Positions 45,776-58,305 of a stretch of 64,000 nt of DNA are shown piece after piece (positions within the stretch are counted from its first letter, which is position 1; each line of letters starts with the position of its first letter). The notes under the pieces are model-generated. The model ran no database searches, was not told the DNA's origin, and saw only the letters and a list, made by a program, of their open reading frames with translations. Source of the stretch: a virus; IMG/VR virus record IMGVR_UViG_3300044731_001604, positions 64,001 to 128,000 of that record; one strand, given 5' to 3'. Made by a program: the position numbers and the translations under genes.

Positions 45776-47167
45776 TTAGAACAAGTTATCAATGATAACG
45801 TTCTTACGTGGTTGATATCCAGCTAAAGTCAAGAAACGGAAGTGAGCTTCAGTTTCAGAAAGTTCAGCTTGAGCAAGTTTCATACGGCTGTATGGGCTAA
45901 GCTCATGGAATCCCCATGTATCTTTTTGGATCATGTAACCAGTTACGAAACCTGGAGCTTTGTTTCCAAGGTCAGTAAATACTTGTGATGCAGAACCATC
46001 TGATTTCATTCTTCCGATGAATTTAGCAGTAGCTGCAGAGCTTCCTCTGTAAACGTTGTAATGAGTAGCACCAGCAACGCCAGCGATAGTCAAGTCAACT
46101 CTTTCACCAAGAGTAACAGTTACAGCAGCAGAAGCAGTAGCAACGCCTTCGCCACGTTCATTTTCAGCAGTAACTAAATAGATATAGCTTCCTGCAGGGA
46201 TGATAGCACCAGATCCTGTGTGAGCGCCAGAAACAGTAGCTGGAGCAGCAGGAGATCCGATCATTGGACGTAATGGGCTAGTTTTTCCAGACAAGAAACG
46301 GCTATCTTCGATAGCAACAGTTCCGTTAGAAACCCATTGTCTACGGAGGTCGGCACCAGAAGCATCTTGTGCAGAACCAGCAAGCATAATTCTTTGGATG
46401 CTGTTAGCACCTGTTCCAAGAGCGATAGCTTTATTGTATCCAGAAAGGATAACAGGGTCAACATAAAGAGTTTCAGCTTTACCCATGTTCATGCGTGAAC
46501 GAAGAGCAGCATCTTCAATAATAGGTTGATCTAAAGCACCATTTTTAGAAAGAACTACTGATTGGTTTGATCCGTAAGAAGCAAACATTAAATCTTGTGT
46601 AGAAACAAGAATATCAGACATACGGATGTGAGAATCAACACCCATCATGTTTGGAAGTTCAGGGATAGCATTTGGATTACCGTCGAAAACACCATTGTTA
46701 GAAAAGTGAGCTTTTCCACCGAAAGCGTCGAATTCGATATCAGCAGCAAGTTTGATAGCTGCGTTTTCTGCTTCTCTATCAGCAGCTTTTTTACCGTCAA
46801 TAGTTTCCATCATGTTTGCAGCGATAGTTACACGCTCAATACAAGAATAGAAGCACATTGGAACAGTCGCTCTGATATAATCGCCAACATTAAGATCGCC
46901 TACTGCGCCTTCACGTTGAGCAGATCCGCCGAAGCGTCCATAAGAAAGCTGTCTGTTGAATTGAACCAACAAAGACTTAGCTTTTTTAACTGGGAAGAGC
47001 TTTTGTAATTTAATGTGACTATCATCAAATGTCACATTGTGCATTACAGGCTCAAGGTTTTCGATTTGGAGGGCAGAACCTTGAACAAGTTGCGAAGGAG
47101 CAACGTTGTAGTTTCCAGCCTCAAGAGTTTTGACCAGACCCTCTAGAGTCTTAACTAGGTCATTCAT
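45776..47167 (-). CDS. major capsid protein
   Basis: SPO1/Twort-like N-arm (K|TLEAG...G.ALQ.E.LE), AADIEFD.F.G, Ig-like insertion; follows scaffold. Confidence 0.9.
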   Translation of the reverse strand: MNDLVKTLEGLVKTLEAGNYNVAPSQLVQGSALQIENLEPVMHNVTFDDSHIKLQKLFPVKKAKSLLVQFNRQLSYGRFGGSAQREGAVGDLNVGDYIRATVPMCFYSCIERVTIAANMMETIDGKKAADREAENAAIKLAADIEFDAFGGKAHFSNNGVFDGNPNAIPELPNMMGVDSHIRMSDILVSTQDLMFASYGSNQSVVLSKNGALDQPIIEDAALRSRMNMGKAETLYVDPVILSGYNKAIALGTGANSIQRIMLAGSAQDASGADLRRQWVSNGTVAIEDSRFLSGKTSPLRPMIGSPAAPATVSGAHTGSGAIIPAGSYIYLVTAENERGEGVATASAAVTVTLGERVDLTIAGVAGATHYNVYRGSSAATAKFIGRMKSDGSASQVFTDLGNKAPGFVTGYMIQKDTWGFHELSPYSRMKLAQAELSETEAHFRFLTLAGYQPRKNVIIDNLF

Positions 47168-47991
47168 TTATTACCCCCTTTAGAGTTAATTAATTTTTCG
47201 ATTTCTTGTTGACCTTCTCCGTATAAGAAGAAAGTGTTTATCATTTCACGTTCATTTTTTGTTAAAGAAGCGTTTCTGCTGAGCTTAGTAGCTTCAGCTT
47301 TAACTTCTTCTTTGCTTAATTGTTTATTGCTATTCATTTCTGATTTAGCAACAAATTGGATATCTGTAATTGATTTTCTAGAAGGTTTAGCTAGAACTTC
47401 AAAAGCTTTAGTAATTTGAGCTAAAGCGTGAGCTTGTTCTTGAACTTGTTTTTCTAGAGCAATAATTTTTTCAGATTTTTCCATTTCATCTTGTTGTTCC
47501 GGTTGTTCTTGTTCTTCAGGTTGTGCAGGAGTTTCTTCAGGTTGCTCTTGTGGAGCAGCTTGTTGGTCCTCTTGTCCATAAGCACTTTGCAATGCTTGTC
47601 TGATTACAGAATAATGCCGTTCTAACTCTTGATGATCCATGCTACCATAAATTTGACTAAGCTCTTCATCAGTAAGAGGAGCATCTTCTTGCTCTTCTTC
47701 TAATTGTTGATCAGGTTGCTCTTCAGGTTGTTCTTCTGGTTGTTCTTCTGGTTGTTGTTCCTGTTCAGGTTGAGCTTCTTGCTCAGGTGCTTGTTCTTGC
47801 TCAGGAGCAGCCATTTCTGGTTGTTCTTCAGCAGGAGCTGGAGCAGCTTCCTCTTCAGGTTGAGCTTGATCTTCTTGTGGAGGCATATCATCTTTTCTTA
47901 ACGAGCTTTTTGACAAAAAAGATGCTTTAGCAAGGACTTCATCAACCCCTGCAATCAATGCATCTAATTCGCTTTCGCTGTAATTTTTCAT
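47164..47991 (-). CDS. capsid scaffold protein
   Basis: E/Q/P-rich, coiled coil, upstream of MCP, LSKS/MEKS/VAKS motifs. Confidence 0.75.
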   Translation of the reverse strand: MKNYSESELDALIAGVDEVLAKASFLSKSSLRKDDMPPQEDQAQPEEEAAPAPAEEQPEMAAPEQEQAPEQEAQPEQEQQPEEQPEEQPEEQPDQQLEEEQEDAPLTDEELSQIYGSMDHQELERHYSVIRQALQSAYGQEDQQAAPQEQPEETPAQPEEQEQPEQQDEMEKSEKIIALEKQVQEQAHALAQITKAFEVLAKPSRKSITDIQFVAKSEMNSNKQLSKEEVKAEATKLSRNASLTKNEREMINTFFLYGEGQQEIEKLINSKGGNK

Positions 47992-55000: not shown

Positions 55001-55362
55001 TCATTAATATATTTATTGGCTCTATCTTCAAGAACTTTTGTGTCAACATTTGGGTGTACGCTTGCCCCTTTTGACCTGTAAGCTGTATCGTTCATAGCAA
55101 TATGGTTAACTACATCTGACGGTGTATTTGGATTATTAAGCATGCCATCAACAATTGAGTTGATCTCATGTTCTCCTACTTTTGGAGCAATATGGTTATA
55201 TAATTTAGAGATAGACTCTTTTGGCGCATTCGCATGTTCTGCAATATCAGACATAAAAGCATGATCGTATATGGTTTTATCCTCATGCGGAGTATTAATA
55301 TAATTTTCAACATGAGAATTTAGAACATCTGATGGCGTATCTGTAGTTAATTCTTTGCTCAT
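49012..55362 (-). CDS. 2116-aa polyvalent-type protein: LRV/HEAT-like repeats + C-terminal EExQSD domain
   Basis: repeats of (H/N)-P/K-N-x-x-x-x-x-L; WIIEEFQSD motif. Confidence 0.65.
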   Translation of the reverse strand: MSKELTTDTPSDVLNSHVENYINTPHEDKTIYDHAFMSDIAEHANAPKESISKLYNHIAPKVGEHEINSIVDGMLNNPNTPSDVVNHIAMNDTAYRSKGASVHPNVDTKVLEDRANKYINETYGSRPPVKNLTPEFYENLLNNRKNHTEDEPNAKTDNEDEIVRLGYATTKHHTPDSIERGVKIFEKGPIYGFNAPTNPSSTIDSDDLVSDFIGNNDLSKDQLNRLHNVYESSSKDYPNTISSIVSHKNADPTLLGKIVKTYNSEESDHNKRSLLRHALGHSNLPNEVLSSVVEKPELDWHEKEALNLNENLSPDQIDKLVSNGHKEFLGHKNTNPDSIKKAWDLSSKDTDAARKMLGYKNLPPDVLKEIVNHKSKNIAIDALKHKNVNKDVVDTALKRKALDVYEAAKQHPLAGHDIYTNEFKQGKRNLHDMWKDSKAMEAWDKMSPEDKHLSLRTMHEKLKGTDLEEISKKSKQSLSDVVQNKLDLIKSPELSQDERDSNTDDLLQMFSESHPKNMSIYSGNDPRSGYYSSQEHKLDLKQSVKDLISNGNKKAEDFALQHPGLTKDLLDSKSRTSASFLDKLYDADKANKENNTQIYDQYGMPDKYSSDAWKLIHNDYSSMGTVKKIVKDYPGVLDTHDWGSKNNENQTWLSDKFEDMSDSEKEKNINDLLEISNGGAAPLIIATKNTPEKVKNELWDKLTPPEKHDLVTGGKYYFNPHDLNNHEENKKILSGHYNDLLPEDMKPRHILGNLEKSVISGMSPSNKSHVSILKDTIKNSEDSKSNSIISSLDRDFKKHKNILNIVPEDKVESIGTTAAIEHLLENEHSGADKLQGVVSNLKDFIKSHADKIENPQEKQDYITKTWKDILYSRASTRVANKAGKVFDDLVDSSGSEQGNELNRILLKDGLLSEEKKAELESKKSFTEKLDSIEHSKKMDYILNSVKGKSLSQPDFEAAVNQFQPDMYLYNHKFNNDHEEVSNDMLNFFDHVADDDKAFYITKLFDTDLDSNTKKILPNLINPLFEKINNLQNWSNEGLNALKDRFFKKVYESLGPVKQVKDLAKKMVDSTISNKNGDLLYDMIDKKILPSTYNKHLINMLQTSPESFGSGTLLSGATSIGHDDSNQKLAETFVNTLDKEAQKSIDQHKDYDKQKNLFTRLSQAHTEDQSKLQSITNFLKKHTLSEDPITSEYANKSLAKMLYSKIPKEEKTSIFKNLPNTPEIANNIEYGNLDTNNPDILENITGHKLRKFLSDSENFGKLTKQNIDVVTNRLFLDNEINESDRITAFGDLSTNPVVSPESLAKLGRSIPHNVYSAQIGVIFSLSKSGIKEKLNSLSTALHQLVESKIDELDKLMVPQDEGSPYFGSEYLSESHLSEIKKHLTPLAKFVGGTFFDESSTDVKSKLQTYSKVYESLDKHLGTILKNSKPEDVKKNAEIASEVLRDVTYSSLDISNEDLNHISNIISMSKQGGYDISLSYPVDIRDYKKLINRAKDAQLSDWQIHFEKHPEFNFCLDGVQELNSNVLGAYSFEKAYEADPQSAVHSAVKMIGRMDDNTLDKYGKGVLSKVVNVFTDPDVTPPDLSAPFKALGDKVSYSEFQDLVQDLDHAQKYNTQAIALQYGVGGQDLADSYVKERGVDEVYASSLFIDKKHSNEIVNNWEKDLKSTEIVDKLLRNYRTDVSSLDKISNILIENHKSGYNNLNKQESSSLAMVLLKHPNLSKESVERLYEETSNDKQVVFLPSRQYHPAFANPTWGGYLMRKFAPALPSEFKKTISEEKLVKSVSVHDKDVDVLQNTMNKVPADGIMWADFKKMNPELENNKVIKNIFMSKNNKPVVPEDFVNAMQSAEIQDKAKEYHMTYSIFDLKLQQHANKPSLVFQLNNSEKSEKEMSQDPKLWALYQMVLKETNGIRESSIGLHPTTPQMVAWSRVDTSSNKDGWIIEEFQSDFAQKFRKNIRTILANSPNGLEIDGHKLSPKEIKDYIKKIDAQLGEWSKAGMNTVIENAKAQGVKTLYMHGAGIRSHMSGGSMVNGQLREYNKDFINPRITDIYDGTAQKYGFTKVDYTDYPHKSVDTLNETRKKGLPTHCWALSLTDEPVQAKEKTAKVKKPRKPKLKE

Positions 55363-56024
55363 ACTCTACTCCCCTTTTTAAGATTATCAGCGGCCCACAG
55401 CGGTTGTAAATTAGTATAATGACACAATTTAATCATATCTTCTGGTGTTTTTGCCGAGCTTAATGGAACAATGTGATCTACATGCCAACCATTACTTGAC
55501 CAATTTTCCCAAGTCATACCTGGTTGAAATTTTGACTCTAAATAATTTTTTAAAAAATCACTAGTACATCCAATATCTTTTATTGCTGATCCAATTTTTT
55601 TATATCCAGTTGCCTTTAAAAAATTATTAAGTCTTGCCCTTAGAGTTTTTGCTAATCTATACATAATATCTTTTTCTTTTCTAATTCTATGTATCTCTCT
55701 GCGTCTTTCAAGAACTTTTGGATGATTCTGCTTTAATTTTCTAAGTATTGGATTTTCTCTATCTCTCTTTTTTTTATTTTTTTCTCTAGACAGTTTAGGA
55801 TTTTCCCAATACCTATCTCTGTATCTTTTTCTTTCTGACTCTAAATTTTTAAGTCTCCAAATTCTTGAATATTCTCTAGCTTTTTCTCTGTTATTTGAAT
55901 TTTTCAAATTTTGTCTTAAATTAATACACTTTTTACACTGAGAAACGCGGCCACTTTTTTTATGTTTGTCCTTAGAAAACTCACTTTCATTTTTTTCAAT
56001 TTTACACTTGGTACAAGTCTTCAT
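55359..56024 (-). CDS. HNH homing endonuclease
   Basis: N-terminal CxxC...CxxC; GMTWEN...WHVDHIVPLS...HYTNLQPLWA.DN..KG. Confidence 0.88.
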   Translation of the reverse strand: MKTCTKCKIEKNESEFSKDKHKKSGRVSQCKKCINLRQNLKNSNNREKAREYSRIWRLKNLESERKRYRDRYWENPKLSREKNKKKRDRENPILRKLKQNHPKVLERRREIHRIRKEKDIMYRLAKTLRARLNNFLKATGYKKIGSAIKDIGCTSDFLKNYLESKFQPGMTWENWSSNGWHVDHIVPLSSAKTPEDMIKLCHYTNLQPLWAADNLKKGSRV

Positions 56025-56638
56025 TGGTCCAACCTAGATGGACTGGACCCATACTTCATTTTATATAAAATTCGTTTTACGTAGTTAGGAGATTCAGCGC
56101 CGCGATAATCCCCTGACTCAATTTCATAGTCATATTCTGGTGTGCTTAATTTCCCAGCTTCAATCGCTTGTTTTTGTTCTTTTCTAATGTTATCTAAAGC
56201 AGCTTTGGATATAAAGTTTTTTTCTTGTTTTCTTTCTGTAGGTTTAATAGACGGCATAATTGGGTAAGGTTGCGTTCCATCAGTTTTTCTAGTTACAGAT
56301 ATTTCTCCACGCTTAATTGCTGCAAATAACGCATCTTTTTCTTCTGGATCTAACATTTTACCATTTAAGATACAAGTGTGCCCGTCAGAAGATATCTCAG
56401 CTACGTCACCGTTGCTTAAAATATATCTAAACATTGTTATGGAAGATTTGGTAGGTTCTTCCAAAGAAAGGTGGGACGATGCAGATACTTTTCTAGAAAG
56501 CTCTTTAAAAGAATTATTAGCCATTTTTGGCACAAAGCCATTAGAATTATCAACTATAAATTCAATCTGGTCTCCCTCAACTCTAATTTCAGCTAATGGT
56601 ACTTTAGATTGCGTGGATTTTACTACATAGATTTTCAT
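56021..56638 (-). CDS. hypothetical late protein
   Basis: 205 aa, coupled to protease gene. Confidence 0.6.
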   Translation of the reverse strand: MKIYVVKSTQSKVPLAEIRVEGDQIEFIVDNSNGFVPKMANNSFKELSRKVSASSHLSLEEPTKSSITMFRYILSNGDVAEISSDGHTCILNGKMLDPEEKDALFAAIKRGEISVTRKTDGTQPYPIMPSIKPTERKQEKNFISKAALDNIRKEQKQAIEAGKLSTPEYDYEIESGDYRGAESPNYVKRILYKMKYGSSPSRLDQ

Positions 56639-58305
56639 TTGTCATCTCCTGGCAATAAAAGACTTTTTTGATTAATTGTGTCACTTACAGCTTGGGCTCT
56701 GTCCCATGCGTTTTGCATAGTGATCGGTCTTTTAGAGTCTGCCTGATATGATTTTAACACACCTAGAGACTTTTGTATAGTTTTTTTATCAAAACCATGA
56801 TGTTTCATGCGTAAAGCCAATACTTTAGGGTCAACGCTTTGAATCCATTTAGATGCTTCTGGGTGTATTGCTGAACTATCATTTTCTAAATAATCTGGCT
56901 TCATATACACATGGCTAAAAGCATAATCATTATCAATATTTAAAAGATGCCCGTCTGGATGAATTAAAACATTACCAAGGTGTCTGTCGCTATTTTGAAG
57001 AACGTGGTCTAATATCGCTAATTTATGCAGACTTCCATCTTCCGTAGCTTTTTTATGCGCATTGTCCCAAGCTTCTTGGGACTCTAGTGGAGTTTTAGAC
57101 CCCTTGATATACTCCACTGCTTGAGTTGAAAGCCCACCATGTACTTCTGGGTGCTTAATGGCTGCAGTTGTAGGAACATGTTTTTCCATGCCAAATACAT
57201 TTCTTGCAATATCAGAATAGTGTGAGGCATTGTGATTTTGAGATTCCTGATTTTCGCCCATTGATAAACTGCTTGGGCCTTTTAAAAATACATCTTGCCC
57301 ATTGTCGTTTCTTAAAATATGTAATTGTTTATCTGGACGGTATGAATCATGTCCAGGTGAGAATTTTTGCTTATTATCAAAATACAAACCTTCAACCAAG
57401 TTTTTTTGATCATGATTTGCATTAATATGAGAATGAGTTTGATTAATTCTAGTTAACTTAGGCTCGCCTTTTTTTAGAGCAAGGTCTTCAGCAACATCAG
57501 CAAAGTGTTCTATATAAGTATCAGATATTTCAGGAAGAGCCGCCTTAAGAACTTCTTTAAGTGGTCTTTTTCTGTCCCAATCTCTAATTGCCGCTTTGAT
57601 TTTATTCTTATTGGTTTTATTAACTATTTGTTCTCTAACTAAAGCTGCGCCGCCTGTAAGTTGTCCTGGTGCGACATTACCCATTCCGGCTTCTAGAGTT
57701 TTATTAAGCTCGTCAATAGCCTTTTTCATATCAGTAAAGTCTATTGCATCATCAGATAGAACGATTGAGTCGATTGTTACTGTTGAAATTGATGAGCTTT
57801 CAAATTTTTTAACGATCTCTTCTGATTCTTTGTCAGTCATAACATCAATCCAGCATTGCTTATTACATGGAGTTAATGTGATCGCTACCTTTTTCATCAT
57901 AGCTCTTTTAAGGATATTGCCATCTCGCTCAAGAGTCACGCCTTCGATTGAGGCTCCAACTTGGATTGGTTCTTTTTTATTATGAAAGTAACGAATCATT
58001 GCTGCAATTGCCAAAGCTCCATGGTGTTCTTCTTCATCAAAAAGCTCAAGTGCCCCATAGATAAACGGAACTTTTACTTGATCCCAGAATTTACGTTGAC
58101 GATCAGTTTCACAATCGCCCTTTTTTAAAATTTTTTTTGCATATTTAAATACGCCAATTGCTGCAACTTCAGGAGAGTCGTTTTTGTGTTCAAAATTGGC
58201 AAACACTTGCCCTTTTTCAACAAGAGATATGTCTACGTTTTCAATTAATAGCGATTCGCCACTAGAATCAATAGCTTGTGTCGCAATAGGCATGTCTATT
58301 ATCAT
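56635..58305 (-). CDS. prohead protease (HK97/herpes-like fold) fused to MCP-like arm and kinase domain
   Basis: DSSGE, NFEH, GASIEG, VAITLTPCN; C-terminal LDHVLQNSDRHLGN...IDNDYAF. Confidence 0.85.
   Translation of the reverse strand: MIIDMPIATQAIDSSGESLLIENVDISLVEKGQVFANFEHKNDSPEVAAIGVFKYAKKILKKGDCETDRQRKFWDQVKVPFIYGALELFDEEEHHGALAIAAMIRYFHNKKEPIQVGASIEGVTLERDGNILKRAMMKKVAITLTPCNKQCWIDVMTDKESEEIVKKFESSSISTVTIDSIVLSDDAIDFTDMKKAIDELNKTLEAGMGNVAPGQLTGGAALVREQIVNKTNKNKIKAAIRDWDRKRPLKEVLKAALPEISDTYIEHFADVAEDLALKKGEPKLTRINQTHSHINANHDQKNLVEGLYFDNKQKFSPGHDSYRPDKQLHILRNDNGQDVFLKGPSSLSMGENQESQNHNASHYSDIARNVFGMEKHVPTTAAIKHPEVHGGLSTQAVEYIKGSKTPLESQEAWDNAHKKATEDGSLHKLAILDHVLQNSDRHLGNVLIHPDGHLLNIDNDYAFSHVYMKPDYLENDSSAIHPEASKWIQSVDPKVLALRMKHHGFDKKTIQKSLGVLKSYQADSKRPITMQNAWDRAQAVSDTINQKSLLLPGDDK

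Follow-up and report, generated by a model that had tools for sequence, protein, structure and literature searches.

The prohead proteases of the SPO1, phage K, Felix-like and Mx1-like head lineage carry a C-terminal module made of a copy of the maturation site and N-terminal arm of the major capsid protein (MCP), followed by a helical domain. We analysed this module in a protease with a fused kinase-like domain, encoded in a 64,000-nucleotide stretch of DNA from an uncultured phage (bases 64001-128000 of the 157,572-bp virus record IMGVR_UViG_3300044731_001604; hereafter the window). The arm copy is genuine and old, occurs widely and evolves under strong selection. We consider it somewhat probable that it serves both as the self-release site of the protease and as its capsid address. 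In the window phage, the copy probably makes the protease and its fused kinase be cut like a capsid subunit, and perhaps makes them be loaded in the same way.

The capsid arm copy and its carrier

Positions 57625-57708 of the window (minus strand) encode LNKTLEAGMGNVAPGQLTGGAALVREQI, which is residues 200-227 of the protease, and positions 47054-47137 (minus strand) encode LVKTLEAGNYNVAPSQLVQGSALQIENL, which is residues 11-38 of the MCP. The two 28-mers were identical at 17 of 28 positions without a gap. An initial annotation of the window, made from the DNA letters without database searches, had pointed out this similarity, and its coordinates, sequences and identity count were exact. When the MCP was shuffled 300 times, no 28-mer scored above 12 identities, and the best ones averaged 8.9. 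BLASTP lengthened the match to protease residues 192-227 against MCP residues 3-38 (19/36 identities, E 3e-6), and the P-side helix of the protease (DMKKAIDELNK|, the bar marking the predicted cut) mirrors the MCP propeptide (DLVKTLEGLVK|). The copied mature N-arm comprises approximately 25 residues and reaches up to approximately 45 in Herelleviridae. The two stretches sit 10 kb apart in one structural module, and a hidden Markov model (HMM) of the motif found exactly two copies, one in the MCP and one in the protease, in the six frames of the window and of the 157,572-bp genome. The initial annotation had proposed a scan of other genes for more copies; no third one was present in the window or the whole 157.6-kb genome, so that in this phage the motif is not a tag for multiple cargoes of the T4 capsid-targeting type. 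A second kinase-like protein and a 2116-amino-acid protein had at most short L-x-K|S sites.

The carrier had been read in the initial annotation as a protease, the arm, a small helical domain and a kinase, an anatomy with which the AF2 model and the Pfam matches agree. Residues 115-228 of the open reading frame (ORF) match the head maturation protease family phrog_1028 (E 2.4e-6), and residues 411-471 match PI3_PI4_kinase (Pfam PF00454, E 5e-11), with DRHxGN and IDND motifs that align to PI4K-beta and VPS34. By tblastn, the putative prohead protease of Myxococcus phage Mx1 was 39% identical and the SPO1-group proteases were 27% identical to the protease-kinase ORF; phmmer matched the window protease to that of SPO1 with an E-value of 1.3e-9. 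A Pfam search with residues 1-190 gave no match even at E<=1, and the SPO1 and 812h1 proteases exceeded the Peptidase_S78 cut-off (23.7 and 26.7 bits vs 21). AF2 gave residues 1-160 an assemblin-like fold with a predicted local distance difference test score (pLDDT) above 90. The best Foldseek matches of this catalytic domain were herpesvirus proteases (probability 0.99-0.8) and T4 gp21 (5jbl, TMt 0.53, rmsd 4.2 Å), all with E-values above 1e-3, so that the fold match is moderate. E39, H40, S119, E121 and G122 were invariant among 27 protease homologues, with His40 and Ser119 as the catalytic residues, and S118/G121 were invariant in 61 more diverse family members.

Behind the catalytic domain follows a linker that is predicted to be disordered (pLDDT <50 for residues 173-187); an x-F-K|T/S-E site is found within it in relatives. 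A helix modelled at residues 191-206 spans the predicted cut. From residue 203 onwards, and thus C-terminal to the catalytic domain, comes the arm, directly preceded at K202 by a site that fits the specificity deduced for the protease. The arm was disordered in the AF2 monomer model (pLDDT <50 for residues 207-224), as would be expected for a segment that becomes ordered on a partner. The helical domain of approximately 50 residues was modelled as three helices (230-241, 249-256 and 262-279; pLDDT 80-88), could be aligned across the Mx1-like clades and was recognisable in the Felix-like and Herelleviridae proteases. We considered whether this domain might be a copy of the capsid-binding C-terminus of the scaffold, and rejected the idea on an hhalign probability of 3%.

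The capsid protein from which the copy derives matches phrog_752 (E 5.6e-34), PDB 9vel (SPO1 Gp6.1, E 1.4e-18) and the phi812 capsid protein (5lii, 9row), and the MCP of Mx1 is 55% identical to it. Coordinates of all features are collected in Table 1.

Distribution and concerted change of the two copies

A whole-protease search of viral contigs gave no match, and relatives were found through the capsid protein. We examined 37 genomes, comprising the window phage, its IMG/VR relatives, Mx1-like and Felix-like phages, Herelleviridae and two Bacteroidota phages. The motif pair, with one copy at the start of the MCP and the other immediately following the protease domain, was present in 35 of them, the exceptions being the two Bacteroidota phages (SJC03 and MA9V-3). 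The motif occurred twice per genome in Mx1, in SPO1 and in 20 IMG/VR relatives, and the pair was found in five Felix-like myoviruses of approximately 90 kb (Dolphis, ST4, Touem01, Mecenats66 and PHB04) and in seven further Herelleviridae (812h1, LMTA-57, EFP01, Semele, Bcp1, Belinda and BSP21). When the phi812 and SPO1 proteases were compared to all PDB sequences, the only significant matches were their own MCP arms (E 1e-6 and 2.4e-6).

In Chryseobacterium phage MA9V-3, protease and scaffold form one direct fusion, with no arm and with only a short K|A site (...QKAM.A shared), an observation that favours reading the arm of the other phages as a capsid address. The fusion protein (L036:7216-8814, 532 amino acids, annotated as hypothetical) comprises the protease and an acidic scaffold-like region, comparable to lambda C/Nu3 or to herpesviruses, and a short VDKAMMA site stands at the place that the arm takes in other proteases.

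The initial annotation had tied the arm copy to the kinase. This tie was not specific, since the copy was also present in passenger-free proteases of 256-300 amino acids from SPO1, phage K, Listeria phages and Felix-like phages. The arm copy is thus an ancient part of the protease family with nothing specifically kinase-related about it.

In most of the lineages compared, the two copies resemble each other most within the same genome. The protease and capsid segments read KSLEAGYEVDPEKMEGGDVFRKESLDKDLKNLSY vs KALEAGHTVNPLDLEGGGAFRVESLERSLHNLSF in SPO1, SFLTGHGTSPDTQVDAGALRKEEI vs SFQTGYGITPDTQIDAGALRREIL in phage 812 and SLEAGYGSDMANLSGGSAMRMQSLD vs SLQAGYGSDMNDLSGGSALRIQSLD in Touem01, and the Felix-like group has Gln/Arg in both copies where the other groups have Glu. 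For 11 lineage representatives, the MCP N-terminus of the same phage was the best-scoring one for 9 of the 11 protease tails, and none of 200,000 permutations reached the diagonal sum of 963 (permutation mean 595, maximum 953; p<5e-6). The duplication predates the lineages, and independent drift would therefore give no own-genome preference; the preference observed indicates concerted change of both copies. At the DNA level, the two copies of the window differ at most synonymous positions (e.g. CTA/CTT, GAA/GAG, GCC/GCT, CCA/CCT), which makes selection at the protein level the likely cause; recent gene conversion was rejected as unlikely on the same grounds.

The concerted change extends to the P-side of the cut. 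A duplication in the MCP, DLVKTLE-GLVKTLE-AG at 47108-47167 (minus strand), places two K|T sites 7 residues apart, and this double site is mirrored in the proteases of the sub-clade, with DMKKAIDELNKTLEAG at 57700-57732 (minus strand) in the window and DLHKAVESLTKSIEAG in relatives.

Regional conservation was calculated as the mean pairwise identity among six close relatives, whose MCPs were 81-86% and whose protease-kinases were 45-51% identical. The helical domain (0.72) and the arm (0.71) were the best-conserved regions of the protein, followed by the catalytic domain (0.65), the kinase (0.41) and the linker (0.35); spacer and kinase were weakly conserved (0.38-0.41). Within the arm, A206, G207, P213, L216, G219, A221, L222 and E225 were at least 90% conserved, and the arm residues L15, E16, A17, G18, P24, L27, G30, L33 and E36 were invariant among 16 MCPs. 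The initial annotation had staked its interpretation beforehand on conservation of the segment and on its co-variation with the MCP arm in related phages, and both were found. Its reading as a whole, in which the arm would dock into the capsid lattice in place of an MCP arm, is thereby supported in part.

Cut sites and function of the arm copy

The capsid chain of phi812 in PDB 9row has 439 residues and starts SFQTGYGITPDTQ... (S25, SFQTGYG...). This start corresponds to residue 25 of the 463-residue precursor in 5lii and lies directly past a lysine that aligns to Lys13 of the window MCP and to Lys202 of the protease. A digest of phage K virions contains the arm peptide (K)SFQTGYGITPDTQIDAGALR (PMC5258805), indicating that the arm is retained in the mature capsid; the peptide is also tryptic and so does not on its own fix the natural N-terminal end. 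In the homologous phi812/phage K protein, the arm thus begins directly past the maturation cut and is kept in the virion, and the window MCP aligns to it with K13|T14. The K|T maturation site predicted by the initial annotation aligns in this way to the mature N-terminus of the phi812/phage K MCP and is well supported by homology.

On the protease side, Lys202 was as invariant as the catalytic serine, both in the 27 homologues and in the 61 diverse family members. The P1|P1' pair at this site was K|T in 56, K|A in 51, K|S in 3 and K|G in 2 of 114 members, and the P1' residue of the protease site matches that of the MCP. A second lysine, K278 in LALKK|G at the end of the helical domain, was at least 90% conserved, with S/G/A/T as the P1' residue at the module end in approximately 69% of members. 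The fragment foreseen in the initial annotation, with arm, helical domain and kinase on one piece, agrees with a cut at K202; a cut at K278 may in addition free the kinase from the arm, in which case the arm would load the kinase and not tether it.

The scaffolds of all three groups were enriched in h-x-K|S/A/T sites, with 11 observed vs 1.8 expected in SPO1, 12 vs 3.0 in Semele, 11 vs 2.4 in Belinda and 5 vs 1.1 in the window (p 0.005). We infer from the MCP site and this enrichment a protease specificity of h-x-K|S/A/T, that is, a working cleavage rule of hydrophobic-x-Lys | Ser/Thr/Ala for these enzymes. None of the scaffold sites is followed by an arm. The specificity of the enzyme therefore appears to be short, suggesting that the arm is more than a cut site.

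We propose that the fusion protein would enter the procapsid with its arm and helical domain occupying the binding site of an MCP arm, on either a neighbouring capsid subunit or the scaffold; in P22, SPP1, phi29 and 80alpha, it is the scaffold that binds the N-arm. Once active, the protease would cut its own chain at Lys202|Thr203, freeing the catalytic domain, with Lys13|Thr14 in the MCP and many short K|S/A sites in the scaffold as further targets of the same enzyme. The arm, the helical domain and the kinase would then stay joined, or a second cut near Lys278 would free the kinase, which in either case would end as a passenger within the head. Three elements of this scheme are inferred: that the protease cleaves itself at this site, that the arm binds a partner in the capsid or the scaffold, and that the kinase is packaged. 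Protease peptides have been detected in purified P100-like virions (PMC12282133).

Several points weigh against a combined role in self-release and addressing. The protease of Bacteroides phage SJC03 is free-standing and lacks the arm, which implies that the arm is dispensable in some lineages. The detection of the protease in CKA15 virions leaves the fragment unspecified. The AF2 monomer model (residues 1-290) docks the arm nowhere, although this is weak evidence. MCP arms are expected to fill all the arm sites of an assembled lattice, which would leave a surrogate arm no obvious place. Finally, co-variation of the two copies would equally be expected if a single protease exosite read both of them.

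This last point leads to a reading that we regard as possible but rather unlikely, in which the copy is a module for recognition and cutting only. The arm would let the protease read its own chain like a capsid subunit through an extended prime-side exosite, the C-terminal piece would be released at capsid maturation, and incorporation would depend on the helical domain or another element. The invariant scissile lysine and the P1' residue shared with the MCP are in keeping with such a role, as is the use of near-identical release and maturation sites by herpesvirus proteases. The extent of the copy fits it poorly, however. Proteases of the assemblin fold bind roughly P5-P4' in their cleft, whereas the similarity of protease and MCP spans approximately P11 to P'24 in the window phage and continues to approximately P'44 in phage K and SPO1. 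Many of the predicted scaffold sites are short and free of an arm, so that 25-45 prime-side residues are apparently not needed for cutting, and the AF2 model does not set the arm on the catalytic domain.

Two further explanations were given less weight. The copy could be a pseudo-substrate timer: lodged in the active site or close to it, either in its own protease molecule or in one beside it, it would silence the enzyme like an inhibitory propeptide until assembly of the procapsid draws it out, its cleavage being a by-product. The copy is one flexible linker away from the catalytic domain, and T4 gp21 and SPN3US gp245 are restrained or processed by autoproteolysis (PMC12991175, PMC7411985). 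We nevertheless think this improbable, because a cleavable K|T/A/S dipeptide in 110 of the 114 members, with K|G in two more, marks the segment as a substrate and not as a blocked mimic; the monomer model has no intramolecular docking, and inserts of 100-400 amino acids between protease and arm are tolerated. The proximity of two similar stretches within one structural module would also be explained if the copy were a leftover without function from a recombination or gene conversion event that involved the capsid and protease genes. That the synonymous positions differ throughout, that the pair was kept across Herelleviridae, Felix-like and Mx1-like phages and that the arm ranks with the best-conserved regions of the protein make such a remnant hardly credible.

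The feature belongs with known self-processing and targeting pieces of prohead proteases. No account of a capsid-like segment in the proteases studied here was found in the literature searched. Duda, Oh and Hendrix reportedly showed in 2013 that the C-terminal tail of HK97 gp4 brings the protease and fused reporters into the procapsid. HK97 gp4 is of the S78 superfamily, to which the window protease probably belongs as well, and has its targeting segment at the C-terminus, where the window protease has the proposed one. No part of the capsid protein is replicated in the HK97 tail, which is thought to bind the delta domain of the MCP; the window lineage, in contrast to HK97, has an MCP propeptide of only 13-45 residues and a separate scaffold. 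The herpesvirus protease, which has the same fold (Foldseek probability 0.99), is made as a polyprotein fused to its procapsid carrier, the scaffold, and is freed at an R site that resembles the main substrate (M) site. The element shared there is a consensus of approximately 4-6 residues between protease and scaffold, in contrast to the 35-50-residue replica of the MCP N-terminus found here.

In SPN3US, the protease gp245 cuts a propeptide of 64 residues off its own C-terminus, and this propeptide apparently targets the enzyme to the prohead (PMC7411985). As in SPN3US gp245 and phiKZ gp175, for which self-removal is described and targeting to the prohead core is proposed (PMC7411985), the piece in the window protease is C-terminal to the catalytic domain. 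Unlike the window protease, gp245 is of the T4 gp21-type family and cuts after Glu; its propeptide is not described as a copy of the MCP arm and is not followed by fused passenger enzymes. The T4 capsid-targeting sequence of IPI-III and Alt is a cleavable address that loads passengers and is clipped off by the head protease (PMC7411985). The T4 tag is N-terminal, 10-20 residues long and present on several proteins, whereas the element of the window lies mid-chain in a single protein of the genome, imitates the capsid protein and precedes a folded domain. In Staphylococcus phage 80alpha, capsid and scaffold reportedly share an N-terminal motif that is trimmed by one protease (PMC5744158). The cut there is made by a host protease that has no part in the sharing, and the shared piece is removed; here the protease itself carries the copy and the piece is retained.

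Only in a handful of phages is the route known by which prohead proteases enter the procapsid. A replica of the MCP N-terminus within the protease itself would solve this problem simply and generally for a very large phage group, which includes therapeutic Staphylococcus (phage K/812) and Listeria (P100/A511-type) phages and the model phage SPO1. The module of approximately 75-85 residues might also be used to carry foreign proteins into capsids.

Passengers and the head module of the window

A profile built from the alignment of arm and helical domain was searched against 1.84 billion representative proteins and matched 557 clusters at E<=1e-3, of which 396 were at E<=1e-10. Among 161 sequences retrieved, a protease domain preceded the module in 133, inserts of more than 80 amino acids separated protease and arm in 48, and the tail behind the module had a median length of 245 amino acids and exceeded 500 amino acids in 30. 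Pfam searches in a sample of 61 identified PI3_PI4_kinase in 14, DUF5661 in 3 and GGDEF in 2. GNAT-like inserts were flanked by ...ILEK|SE... and ...PFGK|SE... sites. Most of the proteins marked by the module have additional domains fused to them. With a constant arm module and varied flanking enzymes, these proteins look like polyproteins with passengers.

A broader proposal, doubtful as it stands, is that arm and helical domain form a portable two-way capsid address. By mimicking the N-terminus of a capsid subunit, the module would take the partner site of an MCP arm in the procapsid, would load the protease on its N-terminal side and an enzyme on its C-terminal side (kinases, GGDEF cyclases or GNAT-like proteins), and would then be excised at the flanking Lys sites. 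If true, hundreds of Mx1-like phage lineages would make protease-passenger polyproteins that deliver enzymes into the next host. The natural fusions behind the module point to unexplored phage enzymes that are possibly packaged and injected.

The GNAT-like inserts (...HQRKGIA..MY...) were seen in relatives P0004-P0009, P0001, P0002 and P0153, either between protease and arm or after the helical domain, and the ...K|SE... bracketing holds for those between protease and arm and for that in P0153. In Mx1, a gene for a 'nucleotide cyclase' lies two genes downstream of that for the 1239-amino-acid protease. The 28 of 161 module proteins without a protease domain look mostly like fragments. The best candidate for a protease-less carrier is P0089 (454 amino acids, module at residues 108-195), in which the module lies between an N-terminal region of unknown kind and a C-terminal domain that is acidic; a scan of viral contigs for it gave no match. 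If P0089 is a complete protein, it would demonstrate an ability of the module to act as a stand-alone tag.

Table 1. Features of the head module in the window; positions are those of the 64,000-nucleotide stretch.
Feature	Position	Strand	Basis
Protease-kinase fusion ORF, 556 amino acids	56635..58305	-	ORF list, profile matches
Catalytic domain, residues 1-165, probable S78/HK97-type prohead serine protease	57811..58305	-	AF2, Foldseek, invariant residues
Variable linker, residues 166-191, possible first Lys site EEIVKK|FES	57733..57810	-	pLDDT, conservation
P-side helix ending at predicted scissile Lys202, DMKKAIDELNK|	57700..57732	-	BLASTP; AF2 helix 191-206
Copy of MCP N-arm, protease residues 203-227, TLEAGMGNVAPGQLTGGAALVREQI	57625..57699	-	BLASTP, 28-mer comparison
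Conserved helical domain, residues 228-279, ending in second candidate site LALKK|G	57469..57624	-	AF2
Spacer and PI3/PI4-kinase-like passenger, residues 280-556	56638..57468	-	Pfam PF00454
MCP, 463 amino acids, SPO1 gp6.1 / phi812 MCP family	45776..47167	-	Profile and PDB matches
Predicted MCP propeptide, residues 1-13, tandem LVKTLE duplication, two K|T sites	47129..47167	-	Sequence, homology to phi812 K24|S25
MCP N-arm, residues 14-38, original of the copy	47054..47128	-	BLASTP, 28-mer comparison
Scaffolding protein, 275 amino acids, acidic, 5 h-x-K|S/A/T sites	47164..47991	-	Position upstream of MCP, conserved C-terminus

Some further features of the head module were noted. The C-termini of Mx1-like scaffolds, for example those encoded at 47164-47991 (minus strand) in the window and at L002:4928-5662, share LTK.EI...L..K...P.L.KSDR..IN.FY......IS.LLK. 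Approximately 55 residues before the C-terminal end, a pair of Lys sites is conserved, ...KA(I/V)T...(I/V)AK|SE; cleavage at these candidate sites would release the end of the scaffold that binds the capsid. The MCP has an all-beta domain inserted at residues ~301-400 (45968-46267, minus strand), with a match to phrog_19622 'esterase/lipase' at residues 306-407. The AF2 model of the MCP was poor overall (pLDDT 39.6, 16 sequences) and the inserted domain was its sole confident part (pLDDT 70-84); it is probably a surface decoration domain. Between the operon piece of the protease-kinase and the 2116-amino-acid protein lies a gene for a basic protein of 221 amino acids (55359-56024, minus strand) with an HNH-like end (WHVDHIVPLS...NLQPLWAADNLKKG), which is likely a homing-type endonuclease within the head module.

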